Positions 7,215 through 22,703 of a stretch of DNA of 36,193 nucleotides are shown here, piece by piece; the first letter of the stretch is position 1, and the number at the start of each line of letters is the position of its first letter. A program made the position numbers and the translations under genes. The notes beneath the pieces were generated by a model, which saw nothing but the letters and a program-made list of their open reading frames with translations, had not been told where the DNA came from and made no database searches. The DNA is from a virus: the IMG/VR virus record IMGVR_UViG_3300045988_064948, one strand, 5' to 3'.

Positions 7215-10200
7215 ATTTATTTGAAGTATTTATTAAAATCGGAGCGGACACATCCGAATCCGATAAGGCAATAAAGGACACAGGCGCAAAGACTAAAGAG
7301 CTGGGCGAAAAGGTTAAAAGCGGTTTAAAAACCGTTGCCAAAGTAGCCGCTGCCGCAACAGGCGCAATGGCGGCAGGCGTATCAAAGGTAGTCAAGGACG
7401 CGACAGCCGCTTATGCCGATTATGAGCAGCTCGTCGGCGGCGTTGAGACTCTTTTCAAGAAATCGTCTAACACCATCCTGCAATATGCGGATAACGCATA
7501 TAAAACAGCGGGACTTTCTGCCAATCAGTATATGGAGACCGTGACAAGCTTCTCGGCTTCGCTCTTGCAGTCCTTGGGCGGCGACACCGTGAAAGCATCA
7601 AAGTATGCGGATATGGCAATCACGGACATGGCGGATAACTACAACAAGCTCGGCACGGATATGTCCTTAGTCCAGTATGCCTATCAAGGCTTCGCAAAGC
7701 AGAACTTTACGATTAAATTTATCTATAGTCCGGCGGCGTGAGTAATCCGCCGTTGAGTGTGAGTGAACCCTACCAGGGGTGTGGGAGAAATCCTGCTAAC
7801 GGGAAAAATCTGTGGGCAAAAGCCTATGACAATCCCGTGCCAAGTCCTAAAATATAAATAATTTCACTTGCATAATAGGTGAAATTGTGTTATAATATTT
7901 TAGGAAAGGTCTAACGGCTATTGGTTCGTTACCAAGTACATCATCTATTGGTACGATGGTGGAAGCGCTCACCAACCTTTAACGGAGGAATTGACTATGG
8001 AAATTTGGAAGCCTATTGAAGAACTGCCCGGTTATTCTGTTAGCGATAAGGGCAGGGTAAGAAAAGACAGCAACGGTCAAATAATGGTGCTCAGTAAAAA
8101 TGGTGGTTATTGCAGAATAACAATTTCAAAGAGCATTCATCGGCTTGTTGCAAAAGCGTTTCTTGACGCTCCTGAGAACAAAGAGCAGTGCTGGGTTGAC
8201 CACATTGACGGAAACCGAGCAAACAACGATGTGAACAACTTGAGGTGGGTAACTCCTTCGGAAAATTGTTTAGCTTTTGGGTATAAAAGCCGCATCGAAA
8301 ACAAGAAGCGCAAAGTCAAGGCAACAAATATTCACGGTCAAACAATCATTTTTGAGTCCAGACAAGCGGCGGCAGAATATTTTGAATGTAGCGATTCCGA
8401 GATTGCTTACGGTCGCTTATATAAAAAAGGAAACAAAAAAGGTTGGTCTTTTGAAAAGGTTGAAGATATAGTCTAATCCCCTAATAAATATCGGGAAACC
8501 GAGGGTATAAAATGGTTAGATAACCTTAAGCTGGGTAGACAAAAAAATATGCCTTTAGCGGCATAACACCATTGCTCAGCATAAACCTCGTGAAAACGGT
8601 GAAACTCTTACCGGGCAATGCCGAAGAAAACACCGTGGTAAATTGACTGCGTAAAATACGCAAAGTCATAACACCTGAACGACTATCGAAACGACGGTGA
8701 AAACCGGAACGGAGTAGAGTACACCCAAGCGGGTGGAAGCGCGAGGGACTATTAAAATAGTCAAGAGATAGTCTGAACTGTATGGAAACATACAGCAGCC
8801 GAAAGGTGGTCACAGAGTAGCGACCTGTGGCGAACATAATGTATGGTGGCACTAAAGAGGAAATGGAGCGCCTCCTGAGAGACGCCGAAAAGCTGACAGG
8901 CAAGAAGTTTGACATTTCCAGCTATGCTGATATCGTCGAAGCAATACACGCCGTGCAAAAAGAAATGGGCATTGCTGGCACGACCGCAAAAGAAGCGGCA
9001 ACGACCATTCAAGGCTCTGTGAGTTCCGCTAAAGCGGCGGGGCATAATCTGCTAGTCGGCATTGCAGACGACAATCAGGACTTCGGCAAACTGGTCGATA
9101 ACTTTGTCGACTCCGTTGTAATTGCGGCTGGCAATATCCTGCCCCGCGTGGAGCAGTCCTTGACAGGTATCGGAAAGCTCGTCGATAAGCTTGCGCCCGT
9201 GCTTATTGCAAAGCTCCCCGATGTGGTCAACAAAGTTCTCCCTGGACTGCTTGACGCAACAGCAAATCTTTTAAACGGTGTTTTGGATGTACTTCCGACG
9301 CTGATAGACGGAATGGTTCCGCCGCTGTTGTCTGCGTTGTCCGATGTCGCGGCAAAACTGCTGGAAACTGTGCCAAAGTTCTGGGACACAACATTTAAAG
9401 CGATTTTGGCATTTATCACAAGCGACAGTCTGCCAAAACTGATAGAATCGGCAATCAATGCGGTGACTCAGACCGTTATTGCTATTGCGAACACTCTGTC
9501 AGACCCCGCAAGCCTTAACGCAATAATAGAGTCTGCACTCGACTTAGTGCTTGCGCTTGTGCATGGGTTAGTGGACGCTATCCCTCAGCTAATCGCCGCA
9601 GTCCCTCAGCTCGTCGGAGCTATCACGGCAACGATAATTACAGAGCTGCCTAACATCATGGCGGCAGCCGTTGAAATAATGGTAGCATTAATTCACGGAC
9701 TTATGGAAGCGTTGCCCGAACTGATGGCGTATGTGCCTAATGTTATTATAGCGATTACAAATGGACTGCTTAACAATCTTGGTACACTGATAAGCGGCGG
9801 CGTTCGCCTCCTGCTGGCTGTTGCACAAGGTATGATTCAGGCGATTCCTGATATGGTTGCAATGATACCACGAATTATCGCGTCGATAGTTGATGCTTTC
9901 CACTCTTACAACTGGAGCAGCATCGGCAAAAACATCGTGGCAGGAATGAAACAGGGTGTTGCGAATGCTTGGAAGAATTTTAGAGAATGGTTTAAAAACC
10001 TCTTTGGAGACCTCACAAACATTGCTAAAAAGATACTCGGCATTGCCTCGCCGTCAAAGGTGTTTAAAAAAATCGGTCAGTTTACGACCGAGGGACTGGC
10101 AATCGGTATCGAGCAGGGCGGCAAAGACGCATTTTCCGCAATCAAAGATGTCTCGCAGGGTGTTATTGACAATTACGGCGCGTCCGTATCGGCGGGATTT

Positions 10201-10359
10201 GGCGTTTCAGTCGGAACTTCTGCGTCAAAGGGAATTTCTCTAACGCTTAATATTGACACATTTAATAATTACACGCAGGAAGATATAAAGAGCCTTGCGG
10301 AAAGGCTGTCAGAAATGCTTGCAAATGCAGCAGAGAGAAAGGCGGGTGCTTATGCTTAA
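7211..10359 (+). CDS. Tape measure protein, split gene: exons 7211..7713, 8515..8536 and 8842..10359 (680 aa after splicing)
   Basis: TTG start follows a GAGGTG RBS. Joining the three exons gives ...[47 protein letters not shown]..., the conserved tape-measure motif. Exon lengths 503+22+1518 = 2043 nt are in frame. Confidence 0.85.
7868..7896 (+). promoter_or_regulatory. Promoter inside intron 1 for the homing endonuclease ORF
   Basis: TTGCAT, 17-nt spacer, TGtTATAAT (7891-7896). An 8-bp inverted repeat AATTTCAC/GTGAAATT overlaps it. Confidence 0.45.
7997..8476 (+). CDS. Intron-encoded homing endonuclease (NUMOD4 + HNH_3 with a C-terminal DNA-binding module)
   Basis: GGAGG lies 8 nt upstream of the ATG at 7997. 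Motifs are [21 protein letters not shown] (NUMOD4-like) and HRLVAKAFL...[24 protein letters not shown] (HNH_3-like). Confidence 0.85.
8537..8841 (+). ncRNA. Group I intron 2 (305 nt, ORF-less)
   Basis: The 5' exon ends ...CTGGGT and the intron ends ...GAACATAATG. It has a P8-like hairpin GACTAT-TAAA-ATAGTC (8747-8762), AAGAGATAGTCTGAAC (8763-8778) and a P9-like hairpin CTGTATG-GAAA-CATACAG (8778-8795). From memory, the layout resembles T4 td-type introns. Confidence 0.75.
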
Positions 10360-11059: not shown

Positions 11060-13153
11060 ATGACTCCAATACTCTTAAAAGCGAATGCTAAAACAAAAAT
11101 AGGCTGGCTGTCAGAATGCACCGAGTGTGAAGTGACGGAGGAGCGCAATGGGGTGTATGAGCTTGAGCTTGTATACCCCATTGGCGCAACCCATGCCAAT
11201 GATATTGTGACGGATTGCTATATTAAGGCAAAGCCGAATCAGGCAAGCGAGAATCAGCTATTCCACATTTATAAAGTCTCAAAGCCTATTAACGGCGAGT
11301 TCACGGTTTACGCGGAGCACGTCAGTTATATTCTTTCGGGCTATCCTGTGCCGACTGTTTCCGCATCTGGCAACGCGCAAGTCGCGATAAACGCTATATT
11401 GACCGCTGCAAAAAATCAAATAGGAAAAGCAACAGGATTCACAGCGGCGACAACTGATATAACGATTTCCTCGTCAATCAATCTTTCCAATGTTTCAGCC
11501 CGTGCGGCTCTCGGCGGTGTTGAGGGCTCTGTGCTTTACACCTACGGCGGCGAATACGAGTTCGACAACTACACAATCAAGCTCCATAAATCGCGCGGCA
11601 AAGACAACGGCGTGAGAATAGCCTACGGCAAAAACATGACGGAGCTCAAATGTGATGTTGATATGTCCGCGTCATATACTGGAATATTCGGCTATGTCAA
11701 AACAGACGATATCAACCTCACAAGCTCTTACAATGTCACAAACACAAGCGGTATTTCAACGCGCATACTCGTCCGTGATTTTTCTTCCGACTTTGGGGAG
11801 AACGCACCGACACAAAGTTTGCTTGACGCGACTGTTAAGAAATATGCAGAAGATAATGATATCAATTCTATCAAGGCTTCTGTAACCGTTTCTTTTGTCA
11901 ATCTTGCGCAGTCGCCCGAATATGCAAACATCGCGCCGCTTGAGACTGTAAATCTCTGCGATACCGTTAAAATCTATCACAAAGAACTCGGCGTGAATAT
12001 CAAGGCAAAAGTCATAAAAACCGTCTACGATACAATCGCCGAAAAATACACAAAAATAGAACTCGGCAGTGCTCGCGCAGATATGTCGAGCATTATCACG
12101 CAGACGGTCAAAGAAGCAACGGACGCTAAAAACATCGCTATTTCAAGCAAATCGGAAATCACAGAGGCGTATCAAAAGGCAATAGCGGACGCAACAGCGG
12201 CAATCACTGGCAACAGCGGCGGCTATATCAGACTTAATCCGTCCGAGAATCCGCAGGAGCTTTTAATAATGGATACCGCGGACGCGAACACAGCAAAAAA
12301 AATATGGCGGTGGAATCTGTCGGGGCTCGGCTATTCGTCCACGGGCTACAACGGCACATACAAAACTGCAATCACACAGGACGGTCACATCGTCGCCGAC
12401 TTTGTCGATACTGGCACTTTGACCGCTAATATCATCAAAGCCGGAATAATGCAGTCTGCAAACGGTGAGTTTTCCTTTAACCTTGAATCCGGACATATTG
12501 AGGCTTCTGACATCAACATCACTGGCGGCGATATAAACCTTGACGGCGGTCAGCTGTCAATCTTAAACAACGACGGCTACAAAGCGGACTTTTCAGGCGG
12601 AGCGGTGGAGCTTTATCAGGGCGCAGGAACTGGCACTGGAACAGGCACAAAATATTTGTCGCTTTATAACTCACTTATAGGCGGAAAATTGTATGCTACA
12701 CTTGCAAGCCCGTCATACACGCTCGGCGGTGTCCCGTCTGGCGGGTTTAGAATCGGAACGAGCGTTGACAATGTCGCGGCGCTGAGCTCATGGAACACTG
12801 ATTTTGCGCTTATCGGCAAAGACAACGCAAGATTCCGCAAAAAAATCGAGGTCAATGAGTCTTTAAATGTTGCGACGGGCGGCGACGCTATCGGATTTAT
12901 TTCTCACGCGCCGTTTGGTGCTAAAGATATAAGCGTAGAGCTTGGCGCAAAAAGCAATGCACACGGTATTTTGCAGCTTGGCAACAATACGGACGGTACT
13001 ACTCCCGCGAGAATGGAATTTTACGCGAGCGGAACAGGCGGCGCGGGAATGGCGTTGGAGCTTATCGGCTCGACCCTTAGCGGCAGAATTTTTATCGATA
13101 CTGGCGGCATTTACGCGCAGTTCGGAAGCGGCACAGCCGTAAAACTTGCATAA
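11060..13153 (+). CDS. Tail-associated lysin / baseplate hub (Tal; prophage endopeptidase tail family)
   Basis: 697 aa. N-terminus ...ECEVTEERNGVYELELVYP...LFHIYKVSKPINGEFTVYAEHVSYIL matches the phage minor structural protein N-terminal region. It follows Dit. Confidence 0.8.
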   Translation: MTPILLKANAKTKIGWLSECTECEVTEERNGVYELELVYPIGATHANDIVTDCYIKAKPNQASENQLFHIYKVSKPINGEFTVYAEHVSYILSGYPVPTVSASGNAQVAINAILTAAKNQIGKATGFTAATTDITISSSINLSNVSARAALGGVEGSVLYTYGGEYEFDNYTIKLHKSRGKDNGVRIAYGKNMTELKCDVDMSASYTGIFGYVKTDDINLTSSYNVTNTSGISTRILVRDFSSDFGENAPTQSLLDATVKKYAEDNDINSIKASVTVSFVNLAQSPEYANIAPLETVNLCDTVKIYHKELGVNIKAKVIKTVYDTIAEKYTKIELGSARADMSSIITQTVKEATDAKNIAISSKSEITEAYQKAIADATAAITGNSGGYIRLNPSENPQELLIMDTADANTAKKIWRWNLSGLGYSSTGYNGTYKTAITQDGHIVADFVDTGTLTANIIKAGIMQSANGEFSFNLESGHIEASDINITGGDINLDGGQLSILNNDGYKADFSGGAVELYQGAGTGTGTGTKYLSLYNSLIGGKLYATLASPSYTLGGVPSGGFRIGTSVDNVAALSSWNTDFALIGKDNARFRKKIEVNESLNVATGGDAIGFISHAPFGAKDISVELGAKSNAHGILQLGNNTDGTTPARMEFYASGTGGAGMALELIGSTLSGRIFIDTGGIYAQFGSGTAVKLA

Positions 13154-13156
13154 CAC

Positions 13157-13184
13157 TTGATTTTTTTGTTAAAAGTGATATAAT
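13157..13184 (+). promoter_or_regulatory. Strong sigma-A-type promoter (TTGATT, 16-nt spacer, TGaTATAAT)
   Basis: TTGATT at 13157-13162 and extended -10 TGATATAAT ending at 13184. Near-identical architecture to the promoter at 29883-29911. Confidence 0.6.
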
Positions 13185-13196
13185 ATAAATATAAAA

Positions 13197-13306
13197 TCCT
13201 GCGCCGTAAAAGCAGGACTTAAAAAAGCGGTTATCCCATACCGTAAGTTGGGACTTAAAAAAGCGGAAATCCCTTGCCGTAAGTAGGGACTTAAAAAAGC
13301 GGTTAT
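13197..13306 (+). repeat. Three tandem ~36-nt units, each a short hairpin with a CCGTAA loop followed by the linker CTTAAAAAAGCGGWWA
   Basis: Stems are TCCTGC/GCAGGA (13197-13217), TCCCA/TGGGA (13234-13253) and TCCCT/AGGGA (13270-13289), with compensatory changes. Loops are gCCGTAAaa, taCCGTAAgt and tgCCGTAAgt. Confidence 0.8.
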
Positions 13307-13320
13307 CATTGGAGGCAACA

Positions 13321-13479
13321 ATGGACTATAAAAAAAGGCTGGAAGAGCTGAAAAACACGCTGAAATATTTTGAAGCGCAGGCAAACGCCACACAGGGCGC
13401 AATACAGCTCTTGCAGGAAATCATCGCAGAGGAAGAAACCGATGACGGTAACGGAAATGGAAAATCTGGAAAAAAGACT
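13321..13479 (+). CDS. Small coiled-coil protein (52 aa), function unknown
   Basis: GGAGG lies 5 nt upstream of the ATG at 13321. Sequence is MDYKKRLEELKNTLKYFEAQANATQGAIQLLQEIIAEEETDDGNGNGKSGKKT. It overlaps the next gene in another frame. Confidence 0.4.
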
Positions 13480-13672
13480 TGACGGGCGATATGTTAAGCA
13501 ATCGACTTGCAATCAGAACCACAAAGAAATAGCGGGTAAACTGGCTAACGACGACAAGCGGATAGAAATCGGGCTTGCTAAGTTAGGCGTTGTTGAAAAG
13601 CTGATGTGGACTATTGCAACGGCGACAATCGGAACACTTATTGCAACGGTGTTCGGCATTATTTTTAAATAA
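13442..13672 (+). CDS. XhlA-like small membrane protein (coiled coil plus C-terminal TM)
   Basis: MTVTEMENLEKRLDGRYVKQSTCNQNHKEIAGKLANDDKRIEIGLAKLGVVEKLMWTIATATIGTLIATVFGIIFK. The architecture resembles PBSX XhlA. The longer 13370 start gives an implausible basic extension. Confidence 0.5.
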   Translation: MTVTEMENLEKRLDGRYVKQSTCNQNHKEIAGKLANDDKRIEIGLAKLGVVEKLMWTIATATIGTLIATVFGIIFK

Positions 13673-13687
13673 CAGGAGGACGCAAAA

Positions 13688-13951
13688 ATGGAAAAGTATT
13701 GTAATGGATGTGACACGAAAAGCATTCCGCTTGCGGCGCATGAATCAGCAATGGCAAGAGCGGAGCGGACAACGCGCAGACTGTGCGCACTGATATTAAC
13801 CTTGATACTGCTCCTTTTTGCGTCCAACCTCGCTTGGATTCTTTACGAAAACTCGTTTGAAGATGAGACGAGTCAGACCGTATGGCAAGAAGCCGATAAC
13901 GGTCAAAATAATTTTGTGGGCGGTGACATAGTTGGCGAAACAGGTAGTTAA
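13688..13951 (+). CDS. Small single-pass membrane protein, function unknown
   Basis: AGGAGG RBS. The motif HESAMARAERTTRRL is followed by the TM segment ALILTLILLLFASNLAWILY. Confidence 0.6.
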   Translation: MEKYCNGCDTKSIPLAAHESAMARAERTTRRLCALILTLILLLFASNLAWILYENSFEDETSQTVWQEADNGQNNFVGGDIVGETGS

Positions 13952-14054
13952 AACGACTAAAAAGCGCGTCAAAAAGGTTGGAGGAAACACGGGATATAAA
14001 TATTGCCCGACTTGCCACGGGAGCGGACGAGTCAAAAAGAAGTAGGTGGATAAT

Positions 14055-14834
14055 ATGTTTTTGCCTGACGATACGCCGATTATTTTTAAACTTCCTCGCG
14101 ACAAAGAATATGCGGATATATATTTTATTCACGACTTGCATTATGGCTCGGAGCTGTTCGACGCAAAGAAGTGGAATAATTTGAAAGCGCAGATAATCGC
14201 AGACCCTAACGCCTACATCTGCTGGGTAGGAGACCTTATGGAGGACGCTATCCCAAACAGCAAGTCCGACATATTTACACAGACCGCAAGCCCCGCGCAC
14301 CAAAAAGAATGGGTTACAGAACAGCTATCCGAACTCAAAGAAAAGACCATAGCCGTAGTGCCCGGCAATCATTGTCACAACCGCGCTACAAAAACTTGCG
14401 GACTTTATCCTCTGTATGACTGTTGTTTAATCGCAGGAATCGGGAAAAAATACCGCGACACAATAGCCTTTTTAAACATAGCAATCGGAGAGATTAAGCC
14501 GTCAAGCGCAAAGCAGATACATTATTTTGGGCAGCTACAACATCAGGCAAAAGATATTAAATCAGTTCATTCCGCCGACTATACGGACGGCATAGACTTC
14601 TTCGCAAGCGGGCACGACCACGAAGCAAAAGACCGACCACGCGCAAAGCTTGTTTTTGACAAGTACAACAACAAAATCACCAAAAAGAATATAGAGTGTA
14701 TCAACTGCGGCTCTTTCTTATCGTTTGGCGGCTATGGGGCAAAATCGGCGTATCGTCCGCAGTCTGACAAGCTTTATGTCCTGCGGATATCGGGCAAGAA
14801 GAAATCTATGCAAACAATAGGCTTTTATGTATGA
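14055..14834 (+). CDS. Calcineurin-like metallophosphoesterase
   Basis: Motifs DLHYGS, GDLMEDA, PGNHC and GHDHE. AGGTGG lies 5 nt upstream of the ATG at 14055; an alternative GTG start is at 14046. Confidence 0.8.
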   Translation: MFLPDDTPIIFKLPRDKEYADIYFIHDLHYGSELFDAKKWNNLKAQIIADPNAYICWVGDLMEDAIPNSKSDIFTQTASPAHQKEWVTEQLSELKEKTIAVVPGNHCHNRATKTCGLYPLYDCCLIAGIGKKYRDTIAFLNIAIGEIKPSSAKQIHYFGQLQHQAKDIKSVHSADYTDGIDFFASGHDHEAKDRPRAKLVFDKYNNKITKKNIECINCGSFLSFGGYGAKSAYRPQSDKLYVLRISGKKKSMQTIGFYV

Positions 14835-15037
14835 TTGACACAGCGAAATTATCCCGCGAAGAATGGGAAAATCTGATTTATCAGCGAATCCACAACGAAA
14901 CATACAGGAAGATTATATCACGCCGCTGGCTTGACGGCGTAAAGCAGGAGGATTTAGCGGAAGAGTTCGGCTATTCTGTCCGACAAATTCAGAATATAAT
15001 CTATAGGTGTGAAAAACTGATTATAAAATATCTGTAA
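14831..15037 (+). CDS. Small sigma-70 region-4-like HTH regulator
   Basis: 68 aa. WLDGVKQEDLAEEFGYSVRQIQNIIYRCEKL resembles a sigma region 4 / ArpU-like HTH. ATGA-coupled to the upstream gene. Confidence 0.55.
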   Translation: MIDTAKLSREEWENLIYQRIHNETYRKIISRRWLDGVKQEDLAEEFGYSVRQIQNIIYRCEKLIIKYL

Positions 15038-15062
15038 AGTGATTATAAAATATCCGTAAAGG
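15019..15062 (+). repeat. Tandem 22-bp direct repeat GATTATAAAATATCYGTAAAGK spanning the stop of the HTH gene and abutting a -35 box
   Basis: The copies at 15019-15040 and 15041-15062 differ at 2 positions. Confidence 0.85.
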
Positions 15063-15064
15063 GC

Positions 15065-15093
15065 TTGACAAATGACAAACAATGCTTTATAAT
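15065..15093 (+). promoter_or_regulatory. Sigma-A-type promoter (TTGACA, 17-nt spacer, TATAAT)
   Basis: TTGACA at 15065-15070 and TATAAT at 15088-15093. Confidence 0.6.
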
Positions 15094-15099
15094 ATCTAA

Positions 15100-15204
15100 T
15101 AGTGATTGGTTTGATTTTGGGTCACGATTACTCCTTTCTTTATTTTTTTACCCCCTTTTAAAAAGTAGCAGAGCAGCATCGAGAAATCGGTGCTGTTTTG
15201 CTTT
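15100..15204 (+). ncRNA. Candidate ~105-nt sRNA (promoter at 15065 to terminator at 15174-15204)
   Basis: No ORF with an RBS lies on the + strand. It contains the CU-rich stretch ACTCCTTTCTTTATTTTTTT and ends in an intrinsic terminator. Confidence 0.35.
15174..15204 (+). terminator. Intrinsic terminator
   Basis: Stem CAGCATCGA / TCGGTGCTG (9 bp, one G-U), GAAA loop, then TTTTGCTTT. Confidence 0.65.
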
Positions 15205-15208
15205 ATAC

Positions 15209-15236
15209 TTGACTTTTTTATAATATGTGATACAAT
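15209..15236 (+). promoter_or_regulatory. Sigma-A-type promoter (TTGACT, 16-nt spacer, TGaTACAAT)
   Basis: TTGACT at 15209-15214 and TACAAT at 15231-15236, preceded by TG. Confidence 0.5.
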
Positions 15237-15242
15237 ATATAT

Positions 15243-15296
15243 GCTTCATGCGTGTCTACAAAGGTGCTCGGCTTCGGCTGGGCGCTTTTGTTTTTT
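15243..15296 (+). ncRNA. Candidate ~55-nt sRNA ending in a UUCG-tetraloop terminator
   Basis: Promoter at 15209-15236. Hairpin AGGTGCTCGGC-TTCG-GCTGGGCGCTT (15262-15287) is followed by TTTTGTTTTTT. The same hairpin could act as a terminator for - strand transcripts. Confidence 0.35.
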
Positions 15297-15326
15297 AAAA
15301 AAGTTCAAAAATATTTTAAAAAGCTA

Positions 15327-15355
15327 TTGACAAGTGCGGCAAAACAGTATATAAT
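15327..15355 (+). promoter_or_regulatory. Sigma-A-type promoter, conserved AAAAAGCTATTGACAA...AGTATATAATATA class
   Basis: TTGACA at 15327-15332, 17-nt spacer, TATAAT at 15350-15355, with an upstream A-tract. Confidence 0.7.
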
Positions 15356-15387
15356 ATAACTGCAAAACAAAGAAGGGAGACATTAAA

Positions 15388-18151: not shown

Positions 18152-18391
18152 ATGAAAGACTTTGAAATCTGCTTGAGCAATCGGGACTGCATCTTTGACA
18201 GCGCGACTTTTGACGACGCAAAAGCGGCGGCAGAGTGGGCGACGGGAAGAAGAGAAAACTACGTTATACAAGGCGATAACGGGCTTAATGTAAAATCGTC
18301 AAAAGACAAGCTTTATGTCGAAAACTTTTACGGCTACGAAGAGATATCCGAAGATGAGCTTGTTGAAATGATTAAAAGATACGCAGAGTGA
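18152..18391 (+). CDS. Hypothetical early protein (79 aa)
   Basis: GAGGT RBS. The longer track ORF from 17900 would run through the promoter and is rejected. Confidence 0.6.
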   Translation: MKDFEICLSNRDCIFDSATFDDAKAAAEWATGRRENYVIQGDNGLNVKSSKDKLYVENFYGYEEISEDELVEMIKRYAE

Positions 18392-18468
18392 CGCGCCGAA
18401 AGGCGCGGTAATGCGGACAGACGGACGGTCACAATCCCGACGGTCGCACATAAAAGGAGGAAAAAATA

Positions 18469-21912: not shown

Positions 21913-22703
21913 ACGAAGTCACAGATAAAAACTACATAGTAATTCAATCTTTTATGGTGTCAGAACTGGGCTTAAAAGGAAACGAACTGCTGATATATGC
22001 TATTATATTCGGCTTTTCTCAGACCACGGGGCAGGCATTTCACGGCAGTTTGACATATCTTGAGAGCTGGACTAACAGCACGCGCCCGACGGTTATTTCG
22101 TCTCTCAAATCATTGGTAGAAAAAGGGTTGATAGAGAAAGAAGAGCAGACTATCAATGGCGTTAAGCGTTGCGGCTACTATGTGGTAGACAATTCAACCG
22201 ACGGCAAAGAAACTCCGCAGGGGGTAGTTAAAAATTTTAACGAAGGTAGTAAAAAAACTTTACATGGGGTAGTTAAAAATTTTAACGAAGGTAGTAAAAA
22301 AACTTTACCCAATAATATATTATATAATATAGTTGATAATATAGTAGATAATAATATTGTCGAGAACGCCGAAAAGCATGACATGAAAGTCATAACAGAA
22401 ATAGTCGACTATCTGAATGAGAAAGCTCATAAGAATTACAGGTCTTACAACAAGGAAACAATTAGACATATTAACGCAAGACTGAACGAGGGTCGCACCT
22501 TGTCAGATTTTAAACAGGTGATAGACAACAGATGCGCTTCATGGCTTGGTACAGACATGGAGCAATACCTGCGACCAAAAACGCTGTTTAGCTCAAACTT
22601 CGAGAGCTACTTGAACGCACCCGAGCCAAAACGCAGAGGGTCAGATGGGCGACTATTAGGCGAAAAATCAAACGGCTGGGAATTTGTATTCGGAGATGAT
22701 TAA
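21909..22703 (+). CDS. Replisome organizer / replication initiator 2 (winged-helix N-terminus, same C-terminal domain), containing the putative origin
   Basis: N-terminus ...LKGNELLIYAIIFGFSQ...TRPTVISSLKSLVEKGLIEKEE. C-terminus IVDYLNEKAHKNYRSYNKETIRHINARLNEGRTLSDFKQVIDNRCASW...YLRPKTLFS.NFESYLN. Confidence 0.7.
   Translation: MNEVTDKNYIVIQSFMVSELGLKGNELLIYAIIFGFSQTTGQAFHGSLTYLESWTNSTRPTVISSLKSLVEKGLIEKEEQTINGVKRCGYYVVDNSTDGKETPQGVVKNFNEGSKKTLHGVVKNFNEGSKKTLPNNILYNIVDNIVDNNIVENAEKHDMKVITEIVDYLNEKAHKNYRSYNKETIRHINARLNEGRTLSDFKQVIDNRCASWLGTDMEQYLRPKTLFSSNFESYLNAPEPKRRGSDGRLLGEKSNGWEFVFGDD
22221..22308. repeat. Two perfect 43-bp direct repeats (period 45 bp), each with two GGTAGTWAAAAA sub-repeats: putative iterons
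   Basis: GGGGTAGTTAAAAATTTTAACGAAGGTAGTAAAAAAACTTTAC occurs at 22221-22263 and 22266-22308. Sub-repeats start at 22223, 22245, 22268 and 22290. Confidence 0.9.
22309..22358. other. AT-rich segment adjacent to the iterons (putative DNA unwinding element)
   Basis: CCAATAATATATTATATAATATAGTTGATAATATAGTAGATAATAATATTG is about 85% A+T and has short GATAATA repeats. Confidence 0.5.

Follow-up and report, generated by a model that had tools for sequence, protein, structure and literature searches.

A putative orphan ToxI-type RNA antitoxin array acquired in the operon leader of a wild human-gut phage

The DNA described here is a viral sequence of 36,193 nucleotides (nt), IMG/VR record IMGVR_UViG_3300045988_064948, the whole of which is called the window. 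It is a phage genome, with genes for a terminase, a portal, a prophage-tail protein, a replication initiator and a DnaC-like loader (Pfam, PHROGs). At positions 13157-13320, between a promoter and the first gene of an operon, it carries three tandem hairpin units, which are interpreted below as an array of the RNA antitoxin ToxI of a type III toxin–antitoxin (TA) system, ToxIN, acquired without its toxin gene. The features of the locus, all on the + strand, are as follows.

13157-13184, +, sigma-70-type promoter obtained by promoter scan: −35 box TTGATT (13157-13162), 16-nt spacer and extended −10 box (TG-n-TATAAT) TGATATAAT (13176-13184).
13197-13226, +, unit 1, 5'-truncated: hairpin, CCGU (13204-13207), CTT, A6 (13221-13226).
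13197-13202 with 13212-13217, +, unit 1 hairpin: stem TCCTGC / GCAGGA, loop GCCGTAAAA.
13199-13307, +, insertion of 109 bp, exactly three repeat periods (37+36+36).
13223-13258, +, unit 2, complete: A-run tail, GCGG (13227-13230), TTA, stem, CCGU (13241-13244), CTT, A-run.
13234-13238 with 13249-13253, +, unit 2 hairpin: stem TCCCA / TGGGA, loop TACCGTAAGT.
13259-13294, +, unit 3, complete: A-run tail, GCGG (13263-13266), AAA, stem, CCGU (13277-13280), CTT, A-run.
13270-13274 with 13285-13289, +, unit 3 hairpin: stem TCCCT / AGGGA, loop TGCCGTAAGT.
13293-13307, +, 3' stub: A6, GCGG and TTATC, the start of a unit-2-like fourth unit.
13308-15037, +, native downstream operon, now preceded by the array as its 5' leader.

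The three tandem units, of 36/37 nt, extend over 13197-13307 and were read directly from the sequence; Tandem Repeats Finder reported 13215-13307 with a period of 36, 2.6 copies, 87% matches and a score of 151. The 16-mer GGACTTAAAAAAGCGG is present in three copies in the window against 0.03 expected, and this number was reached by none of 100 shuffles. Stems have 5-6 base pairs, loops have 9-10 nt with CCGTAA in each, and the linker on the 3' side of every unit is CTT, A6, GCGG and WWA (TTA, AAA and TTA). The fourth linker (13290-13307) leads into the native Shine–Dalgarno sequence ATTGGAGG, whose GGAGG (13311-13315) and the ATG at 13321 open the downstream operon. The hairpin units with their CCGTAA loops and linkers, and the fourth linker copy running into the GGAGG before the open reading frame (ORF) at 13321, had been noticed in an earlier sequence-only reading of this DNA and were confirmed. 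The same is true of its statement that the hairpins are not terminators: no terminator was found in or after the array, and the scan of 13307-15160 was negative.

Where unit 2 exactly begins and ends depends on the predicted ToxN cut site inside the A6 runs. Unit 1 lacks the 5' GCGG pseudoknot strand, which complete loci have at that place (...TAAGCGGAGATCCTGCG), and it was matched by the covariance model R1 over model positions 9-39 only, with 25 bits. Unit 2 is identical in sequence to unit 2 of loci L002, L003, L005 and L046. Unit 3, matched by R1 at 13259-13297 with 61.1 bits (E = 8e-10), has the same sequence as the conserved unit that closes the array in many toxIN loci. The 3' stub supplies a 3' A-run site for unit 3 and stops at the insertion junction, whereas canonical loci have AAAAA and a terminator after unit 3. 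The array of the window therefore contains two complete units, the 5'-truncated unit 1 and the 3' stub. R1 gave no match elsewhere in the window and none in relatives without the array. This model spans 39 nt, overlaps neighbouring units and suppresses alternate ones; pair counts were made on alignment A4, which comprises 33 distinct, ungapped, homologous units of 36 nt from other loci. A MAFFT alignment (A2) shifts the 37-nt units out of register and was left out of the counts.

In the register given by the A-runs, each unit reads A-run, GCGG, 3 nt, 5-nt stem, 2 nt, CCGU, 4 nt, 5-nt stem, CUU and A-run. The hairpin helix shows changes on both sides at 5/5 pairs, with 97% of cells paired, and the whole structure beats 500/500 column shuffles and all slid controls. 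A candidate second helix between GCGG and CCGU is 96% paired and nearly invariant; its sole double change, CG to AU (GAGG with CCUU), is found in unit 1 of L040 and of L053 and favours the upstream rather than the downstream GCGG as the partner. The comparison thus suggests that the unit is a compact H-type pseudoknot with A-rich single-stranded tails, the second helix being a candidate. ToxI has been described with the same architecture, an H-type pseudoknot and single-stranded tails, and toxins and antitoxins pair with high specificity (PMC5086642). The A6 run between all units matches, at the sequence level, the motif AAA/AA (cut at the slash) reported for cleavage by B. thuringiensis ToxN, the nearest relative that has been characterised (PMC8860590). 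Nested folding is unable to model a pseudoknot. The folding z value over the whole leader was -0.8; units 1, 2 and 3 had z values of -3.6, -0.5 and -0.2, and apart from unit 1 none of these was better than shuffles. Folding energy by itself is unremarkable; the evidence for structure is comparative.

The proposal that the stems change in a compensatory way, as expected of a selected RNA structure and not of a simple duplication, is thus borne out by the 33 homologous units, and the covariation check that had been suggested gave a value reached by 0/500 shuffles. An action at the DNA level, through phased protein-binding iterons or a cruciform, had also been put forward. The repeats are indeed tandem, phased at 36 bp and provided with inverted repeats, but on the + strand the compensatory changes of the stems maintain a pairing compatible with G.U, the homologues are always in the transcribed orientation, from promoter to terminator and upstream of toxN, and the repeats are missing from sibling phages. 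This idea found no support and is considered very improbable.

To identify the array, IMG/VR was scanned with CCGTAA-N7-8-CTTAAAAAAGCGG, which gave 22 loci. Over the 102 nt of window positions 13196-13297, the arrays of L002 and L003 show 100% identity. In L002 a promoter and a leader are followed by the same three units, a Rho-independent terminator, a ribosome-binding site and a gene for a protein of 169 amino acids (aa). This protein matches the Pfam family ToxN_toxin (PF13958, 2.5e-50) and PADLOC AbiQ (4.5e-46), and its best match in the PDB is 4ATO, the ToxN of B. thuringiensis (8e-22). L002, L162, L164 and L170 have an identical array and ToxN proteins 100% identical among these four, and the identical toxIN (ToxN 100%) was also found on human-gut contigs of 98-263 kb. 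From the identical array preceding the ToxN gene in loci of the L002 type, the repeats of the window are identified by sequence as the ToxI antitoxin of the B. thuringiensis-like ToxIN subfamily.

L002 lies at the end of a prophage, in the order tail genes, holin (PF09682), CW_7 endolysin, toxIN, tRNA and a bacterial 2-hydroxyacid dehydrogenase. It has several segments in common with the phage of the window, at 67-85% nucleotide identity, and a related resident prophage may, to judge by these segments, have been both source and target of the array.

The same scan over one genome per species retrieved 49 loci. The canonical type III layout of promoter, three repeats, terminator and toxN was present in 22/49, in metagenome-assembled genomes (MAGs) of gut Clostridia including Acutalibacteraceae, Faecousia, Congzhengia, Ca. 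Fimenecus, Eubacteriales and others. These 22 MAG loci have diverged arrays and ToxN identities of 35-79%. The remaining loci of the scan were mostly coincidences in coding sequences, together with a few toxin-less or truncated arrays.

The units within one array differ and their order is conserved (L002, L023, L026, L038, L040, L046, L047, L068 and other toxIN loci), and the last unit, AAATCCCTTGCCGTAAGTAGGGA, stays the same even between loci with a ToxN identity of only 57-79%. This pattern hints that the three edges of the triangular ToxN3:ToxI3 complex could be distinct and encoded by a single array. Canonical loci also have a conserved leader of ~70 nt between the promoter and the first repeat (L002 11380-11460 (-), L023, L026, L038, L060), formed by two hairpins (GTGGA..TCCAC and GTGATA..TATCAC) and a C-rich tract; the orphan arrays of the window and of L054 are without it. 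A preQ1-like small pseudoknot riboswitch and guanidine-II-like tandem hairpins were considered as other identities and dropped, as they had no support in Rfam and the toxIN context explains the element.

No toxin gene accompanies the array in the window. Searches of the window by tblastn with two toxins gave a best E of 2.3, and a profile hidden Markov model of 20 cognate toxins gave a best E of 1.1 against all six frames. Among the ORFs of the downstream operon no ToxN-like product was detected (Pfam, and PHROGs on neighbouring ORFs). Compared with a complete toxIN module, neither toxN nor an intervening terminator follows the repeats. In its layout the locus corresponds to a phage-borne ToxI mimic or hijack of the PhiTE type: it is intergenic, in a phage genome, toxin-less, with at least one complete unit in phase, and it was acquired by recombination.

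The acquisition can be read from the sibling phages, which were gathered through the tail protein (99-71% tail identity). In L072 (99% tail identity), L073 (93%), L074, L082 and L084, window positions 13000-13198 and 13305-15300 are matched contiguously by blastn. Alignment A1 confirms the empty site in the relatives, with the junction (marked by a slash) ...TATAAAATC/ATTGGAGG..., that is ...AAAATC/ATTGGAGG, or, in a longer reading, ...TGATATAATATAAATATAAAATC/ATTGGAGGCAACAATGG. The trinucleotide ATC is present at both ends of the insert (13196-13198 and 13305-13307) as a microhomology, and the insertion can equally be written as 13196-13304. An identical 53-aa downstream protein was found in ten places, in 9/10 of which the array is absent. 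L153, from another ENA assembly, is a second genome with the identical insert; it shows 97.85% identity over 3162 nt and differs at 68/3162 positions, none of them between 13080 and 13565. The insert is thus real, heritable and not an assembly artefact, because L153 carries it in identical form. On these alignments, the 109-bp array is a horizontally acquired insertion that the nearest relatives lack.

The left end of the insert coincides with the base of the unit-1 hairpin, which is why unit 1 has no preceding GCGG, and the right end falls in GCGGTTATC, at the start of the unit-2-like fourth unit. This structure of the ends suggests a donor array that was longer or rearranged, or a history in two steps, in which a small capture may have been followed by homologous exchange within the shared GGACTTAAAAA.

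The strong promoter at 13157-13184 and the promoter-proximal position of the leader, both part of the sequence-only reading, were recovered by promoter scan. Transcription is predicted to start at ~13191-13192, and the insert lies 7-8 nt downstream of this start, leaving the promoter and the Shine–Dalgarno sequence both intact. The promoter is kept in the array-less relatives L072, L073, L074, L082, L084 and L150-L159; by this comparison the promoter and the operon are native phage DNA and only the array is foreign. Besides the 53-aa protein, the operon encodes two small proteins of membrane type and a metallophosphoesterase (14046-14834); it also has a 37-aa ORF and a gene for a small helix-turn-helix protein (14831-15037).

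With this position between promoter and Shine–Dalgarno sequence, no terminator between them, and a repeated and covarying structure, the array could be taken for a cis-acting leader element regulating the operon, that is, as sites for a phage regulator, as a put-like antitermination RNA or as a ToxN-responsive switch or stabiliser of the mRNA. Cutting by ToxN would alter the 5' end of the mRNA, and a cis effect as a by-product is possible. Against a regulatory element, the siblings use the same promoter and operon with a leader of ~30 nt and no array, the sequence belongs to a TA system of hosts or prophages, no Rfam cis-regulatory family was matched (at gathering thresholds, with nothing meaningful at E <= 10), and no phage-encoded partner is indicated. 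This explanation is regarded as improbable. The put-like idea in particular, raised in the earlier reading, is unsupported, because an operon regulatory element would be expected in the sibling phages. The suggestion of multimeric sites for an RNA-binding protein came close to the truth, in that the partner is, by sequence, most likely the ToxN endoribonuclease of the host or of a prophage and not a phage regulator.

Arrays without toxin were also found in another phage lineage, that of L003, which consists of temperate phages of ~90 kb with an integrase and Bro/ANT genes (20 contigs analysed). It carries a 195-bp fragment of toxIN (L003 11941-12135) made up of the tail of the leader, three units, the terminator, the ribosome-binding site and ATGGAAAATTTAC, a stretch that includes the first codons of toxN, after which unrelated DNA follows. 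The siblings L004, L005 and L177 are without this fragment and have other arrays ~125 nt further on, at ACTAAAA/G (L004 4041-4147), composed of unit 3 three times or of unit 2 and unit 3. Judged from these sequences, the array has been taken by phages without the toxin at least three times independently, and every capture keeps at least two complete units in phase. Variants within the L003 lineage mostly keep the pairing, for example by a change of C to U giving U.G, and the terminator of L173 and L175 has a compensatory change from GGCGAG/CTCGCC to GACGAG/CTCGTC. A hammerhead-like CUGAUGA beside the arrays of L004 and L005 was rejected as a candidate: Rfam was blank at gathering thresholds and at E <= 1, and the motif lies in native flanking DNA that is also present in L003.

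Orphan or truncated arrays also occur in the MAG contigs L054, L060, L066, L067 and L048, and the context of the first four is largely uninformative. In L060 (633-3476) an orphan array with its terminator and without toxN lies between a gene for an Mrr-type restriction endonuclease and a tyrosine integrase, and by its gene content this locus looks like a mobile defence island. In L048 (4596-4762), an Acutalibacteraceae MAG, the array is fused to toxN codons ~77-110; by the sequence, an internal deletion has taken out unit 3, the terminator and the N-terminus of the toxin and so inactivated the system. GenBank phages gave no match to the array.

These loci bear on the possibility that the array of the window is what remains of a complete toxIN once carried as the phage's own defence or addiction cassette, the toxin having been deleted later. 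Complete toxIN modules do exist on prophages (L002) and in a few GenBank phages, orphans of the L003 type retain the terminator and the first toxN codons, and L048 shows a deletion within toxI-toxN. In the window, on the other side, both junctions lie inside the repeat array, with no remnant of leader, terminator or toxN; the empty site of the relatives is exact, with a microhomology of 3 bp; and the array runs into a fourth-unit stub that is absent from canonical three-unit loci. A remnant of this kind is therefore held to be quite improbable, a shade more so than a cis-acting leader.

The function that is most likely is that of an RNA decoy antitoxin directed against a host or prophage ToxN. 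The identity and the acquisition of the array were computed, and the steps that follow are drawn from the ToxIN literature and from the precedent of phage PhiTE. Upon infection, host RNA polymerase would transcribe the array as an operon leader from the strong native promoter; a Clostridia strain of the Acutalibacteraceae or Ruminococcaceae type is the probable candidate host. In a cell with cognate ToxN, for instance one with a prophage of the L002 type, the precursor would be cut in the A6 runs, and the pseudoknots of ~36 nt thus released would stay bound to ToxN in an inactive cyclic complex. The phage RNA would replace the decaying supply of host ToxI, so that ToxN would stay inhibited and the phage could escape abortive infection or prophage-mediated exclusion. 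The array is thus probably an orphan ToxI-type RNA antitoxin array, captured by illegitimate recombination at the ATC microhomology and serving to keep ToxN inhibited on infection.

Several points weigh against this interpretation. The ToxIN of B. thuringiensis had no anti-phage activity in the native host (PMC5086642). The window has no more than two complete units; for escape, PhiTE needed 4.5-5.5 pseudo-ToxI repeats. The insert is recent, since it is identical to the donor array, and its own sequence bears no sign of purifying selection. In the L003 lineage the array has 12/109 polymorphic sites against 14/65 for the terminator and stub acquired with it, a difference that is non-significant (P = 0.078). 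Finally, when window positions 13050-13450 were searched against Rfam at E <= 10, the ToxI family RF02519 obtained 15.8 bits (E = 3), far from its gathering score of 50, and this weak match was used as a lead and not as evidence. The distant arrays L028 and L036 had no match to the same model at E <= 1; membership in ToxI rests on the context of cognate toxins because the Rfam model is narrow. At gathering thresholds nothing was matched in the array region; the matches elsewhere in the window were limited to a group I intron and a twister ribozyme.

Some of these points would also fit the main alternative, according to which the insert is a neutral scar of recombination, picked up recently and by accident from a prophage or host carrying toxIN and hitch-hiking without benefit for the phage. 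The insert is young, being 100% identical to the donor, the array is rare in the lineage (1-2 of about 15 close relatives), the left junction had 0 matches in metagenomes of the Joint Genome Institute (JGI), unit 1 is truncated, and the polymorphism test in the L003 lineage is non-significant. A scar does not so readily account for at least three independent captures of the same array by phages, each without the toxin and each with at least two complete in-phase units, nor for an insert placed between a strong promoter and a Shine–Dalgarno sequence with neither disrupted. Likewise, the variants of the L003 lineage mostly keep the pairing, the change in the terminator is compensatory, and a second genome, with 68 differences in the flanks, retains the insert. 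An accidental scar is considered unlikely, and a captured antitoxin array remains the preferred explanation.

The array was compared with known systems. Its likeness to the ToxIN of B. thuringiensis pAW63 (4ATO; RF02519) and to antiQ/AbiQ of Lactococcus lies in the tandem repeats of ~34-36 nt, and its cognate loci have the same order as B. thuringiensis ToxIN and AbiQ: promoter, ~3 repeats, Rho-independent terminator and toxN. The units share with ToxI the A-rich single-stranded tails and the A-runs matching AAA/AA, and would share the small H-type pseudoknot, of which the second helix is a candidate; the cognate toxin belongs to PF13958 with 4ATO as the closest solved structure, and the unit sequence is visibly similar to the Rfam ToxI consensus CCUUaCCGUA-GUAGG-ACU-AA. 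It differs from ToxI in its three non-identical units of 36/37 nt and in the low Rfam score already given, and from ToxIN loci in that the copy of the window is without terminator and toxN, lies in a phage operon leader and has a unit 1 without the 5' pseudoknot strand.

In escape mutants of PhiTE, a pseudo-ToxI was expanded, or ToxI was hijacked from a plasmid by recombination, with mosaic end repeats (Blower et al. 2012, PMC3475682). The array resembles the pseudo-ToxI of PhiTE and the PhiTE-F hijack in being phage-borne, toxin-less and intergenic, recombined from a toxIN locus and with partial end repeats, and the proposed action, RNA mimicry keeping ToxN inhibited, would also be the same. 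PhiTE is a Pectobacterium myovirus whose variants, with 4.5-5.5 repeats, were selected in the laboratory against the plasmid ToxIN of P. atrosepticum; in contrast, the arrays described here belong to wild human-gut phage genomes of Clostridia and to a partly prophage-borne ToxIN subfamily similar to that of B. thuringiensis, with 2 complete units and a strong promoter upstream in the window, and with at least three independent acquisitions. [quoted passage not shown] ToxI and its hijack by a phage were already known.

Other elements of the window were also observed. A group I intron (RF00028, 62.1 bits, E = 1.3e-13) is located at 8544-8795 (+), between the ORFs 7991-8476 and 8827-10359 in the region of the tail module, and probably interrupts a structural gene. 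A self-cleaving ribozyme of the twister type P5 (RF02684), which scored 56.7 bits where the gathering score is 37.6, is present at 18382-18440 (+), in an intergenic or early region. The 22-bp tandem repeat TGATTATAAAATATCYGTAAAG, in two copies at 15014-15061, had been linked to the array through a shared CYGTAAAG motif. This resemblance is coincidental, as the repeat has no hairpin, linker or covariance-model match; the repeat instead lies directly upstream of, and abuts, the −35 box of a separate, perfect consensus promoter (15065-15093). Downstream of this promoter there are two promoter-to-terminator pairs (terminators at 15167-15202 and 15258-15291) and a third consensus promoter at 15327-15355. 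Region 15014-15360 looks like operator repeats together with one or two transcription units that are very short and could be small RNAs, and is unrelated to the ToxI array. At 22221-22353, perfect direct repeats of 45 bp (two copies, with internal subrepeats of 22-23 bp) and repeats of 12 bp lie beside the genes of the replication initiator and the DnaC loader, likely an origin with iterons.

To our knowledge, RNA-based escape from abortive infection by type III TA systems has so far come from a single laboratory selection, that of PhiTE. For the array of the window the states before and after capture are both in hand, as the exact empty site of the siblings and a donor-type locus with its toxin, and two further independent captures were found in another phage lineage. 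This makes it possible to test the capture of antitoxins in nature, the role of prophage ToxIN in competition between gut phages and the number of repeats needed. A search for toxI-like repeats without toxN in viral contigs offers, in addition, a recipe for finding non-coding anti-defence genes missed by protein-centred screens. More broadly, we lean, though only slightly, towards the view that gut phages in the wild have captured the RNA half of type III TA systems again and again, expressing it as an RNA anti-defence gene in its own right, and that orphan ToxI arrays may form a widespread, uncatalogued class of counter-defence, much of it aimed at the ToxIN of competing prophages. If this is true, orphan ToxI arrays would be analogous to RNA anti-CRISPRs, and the window would hold a freshly caught example.

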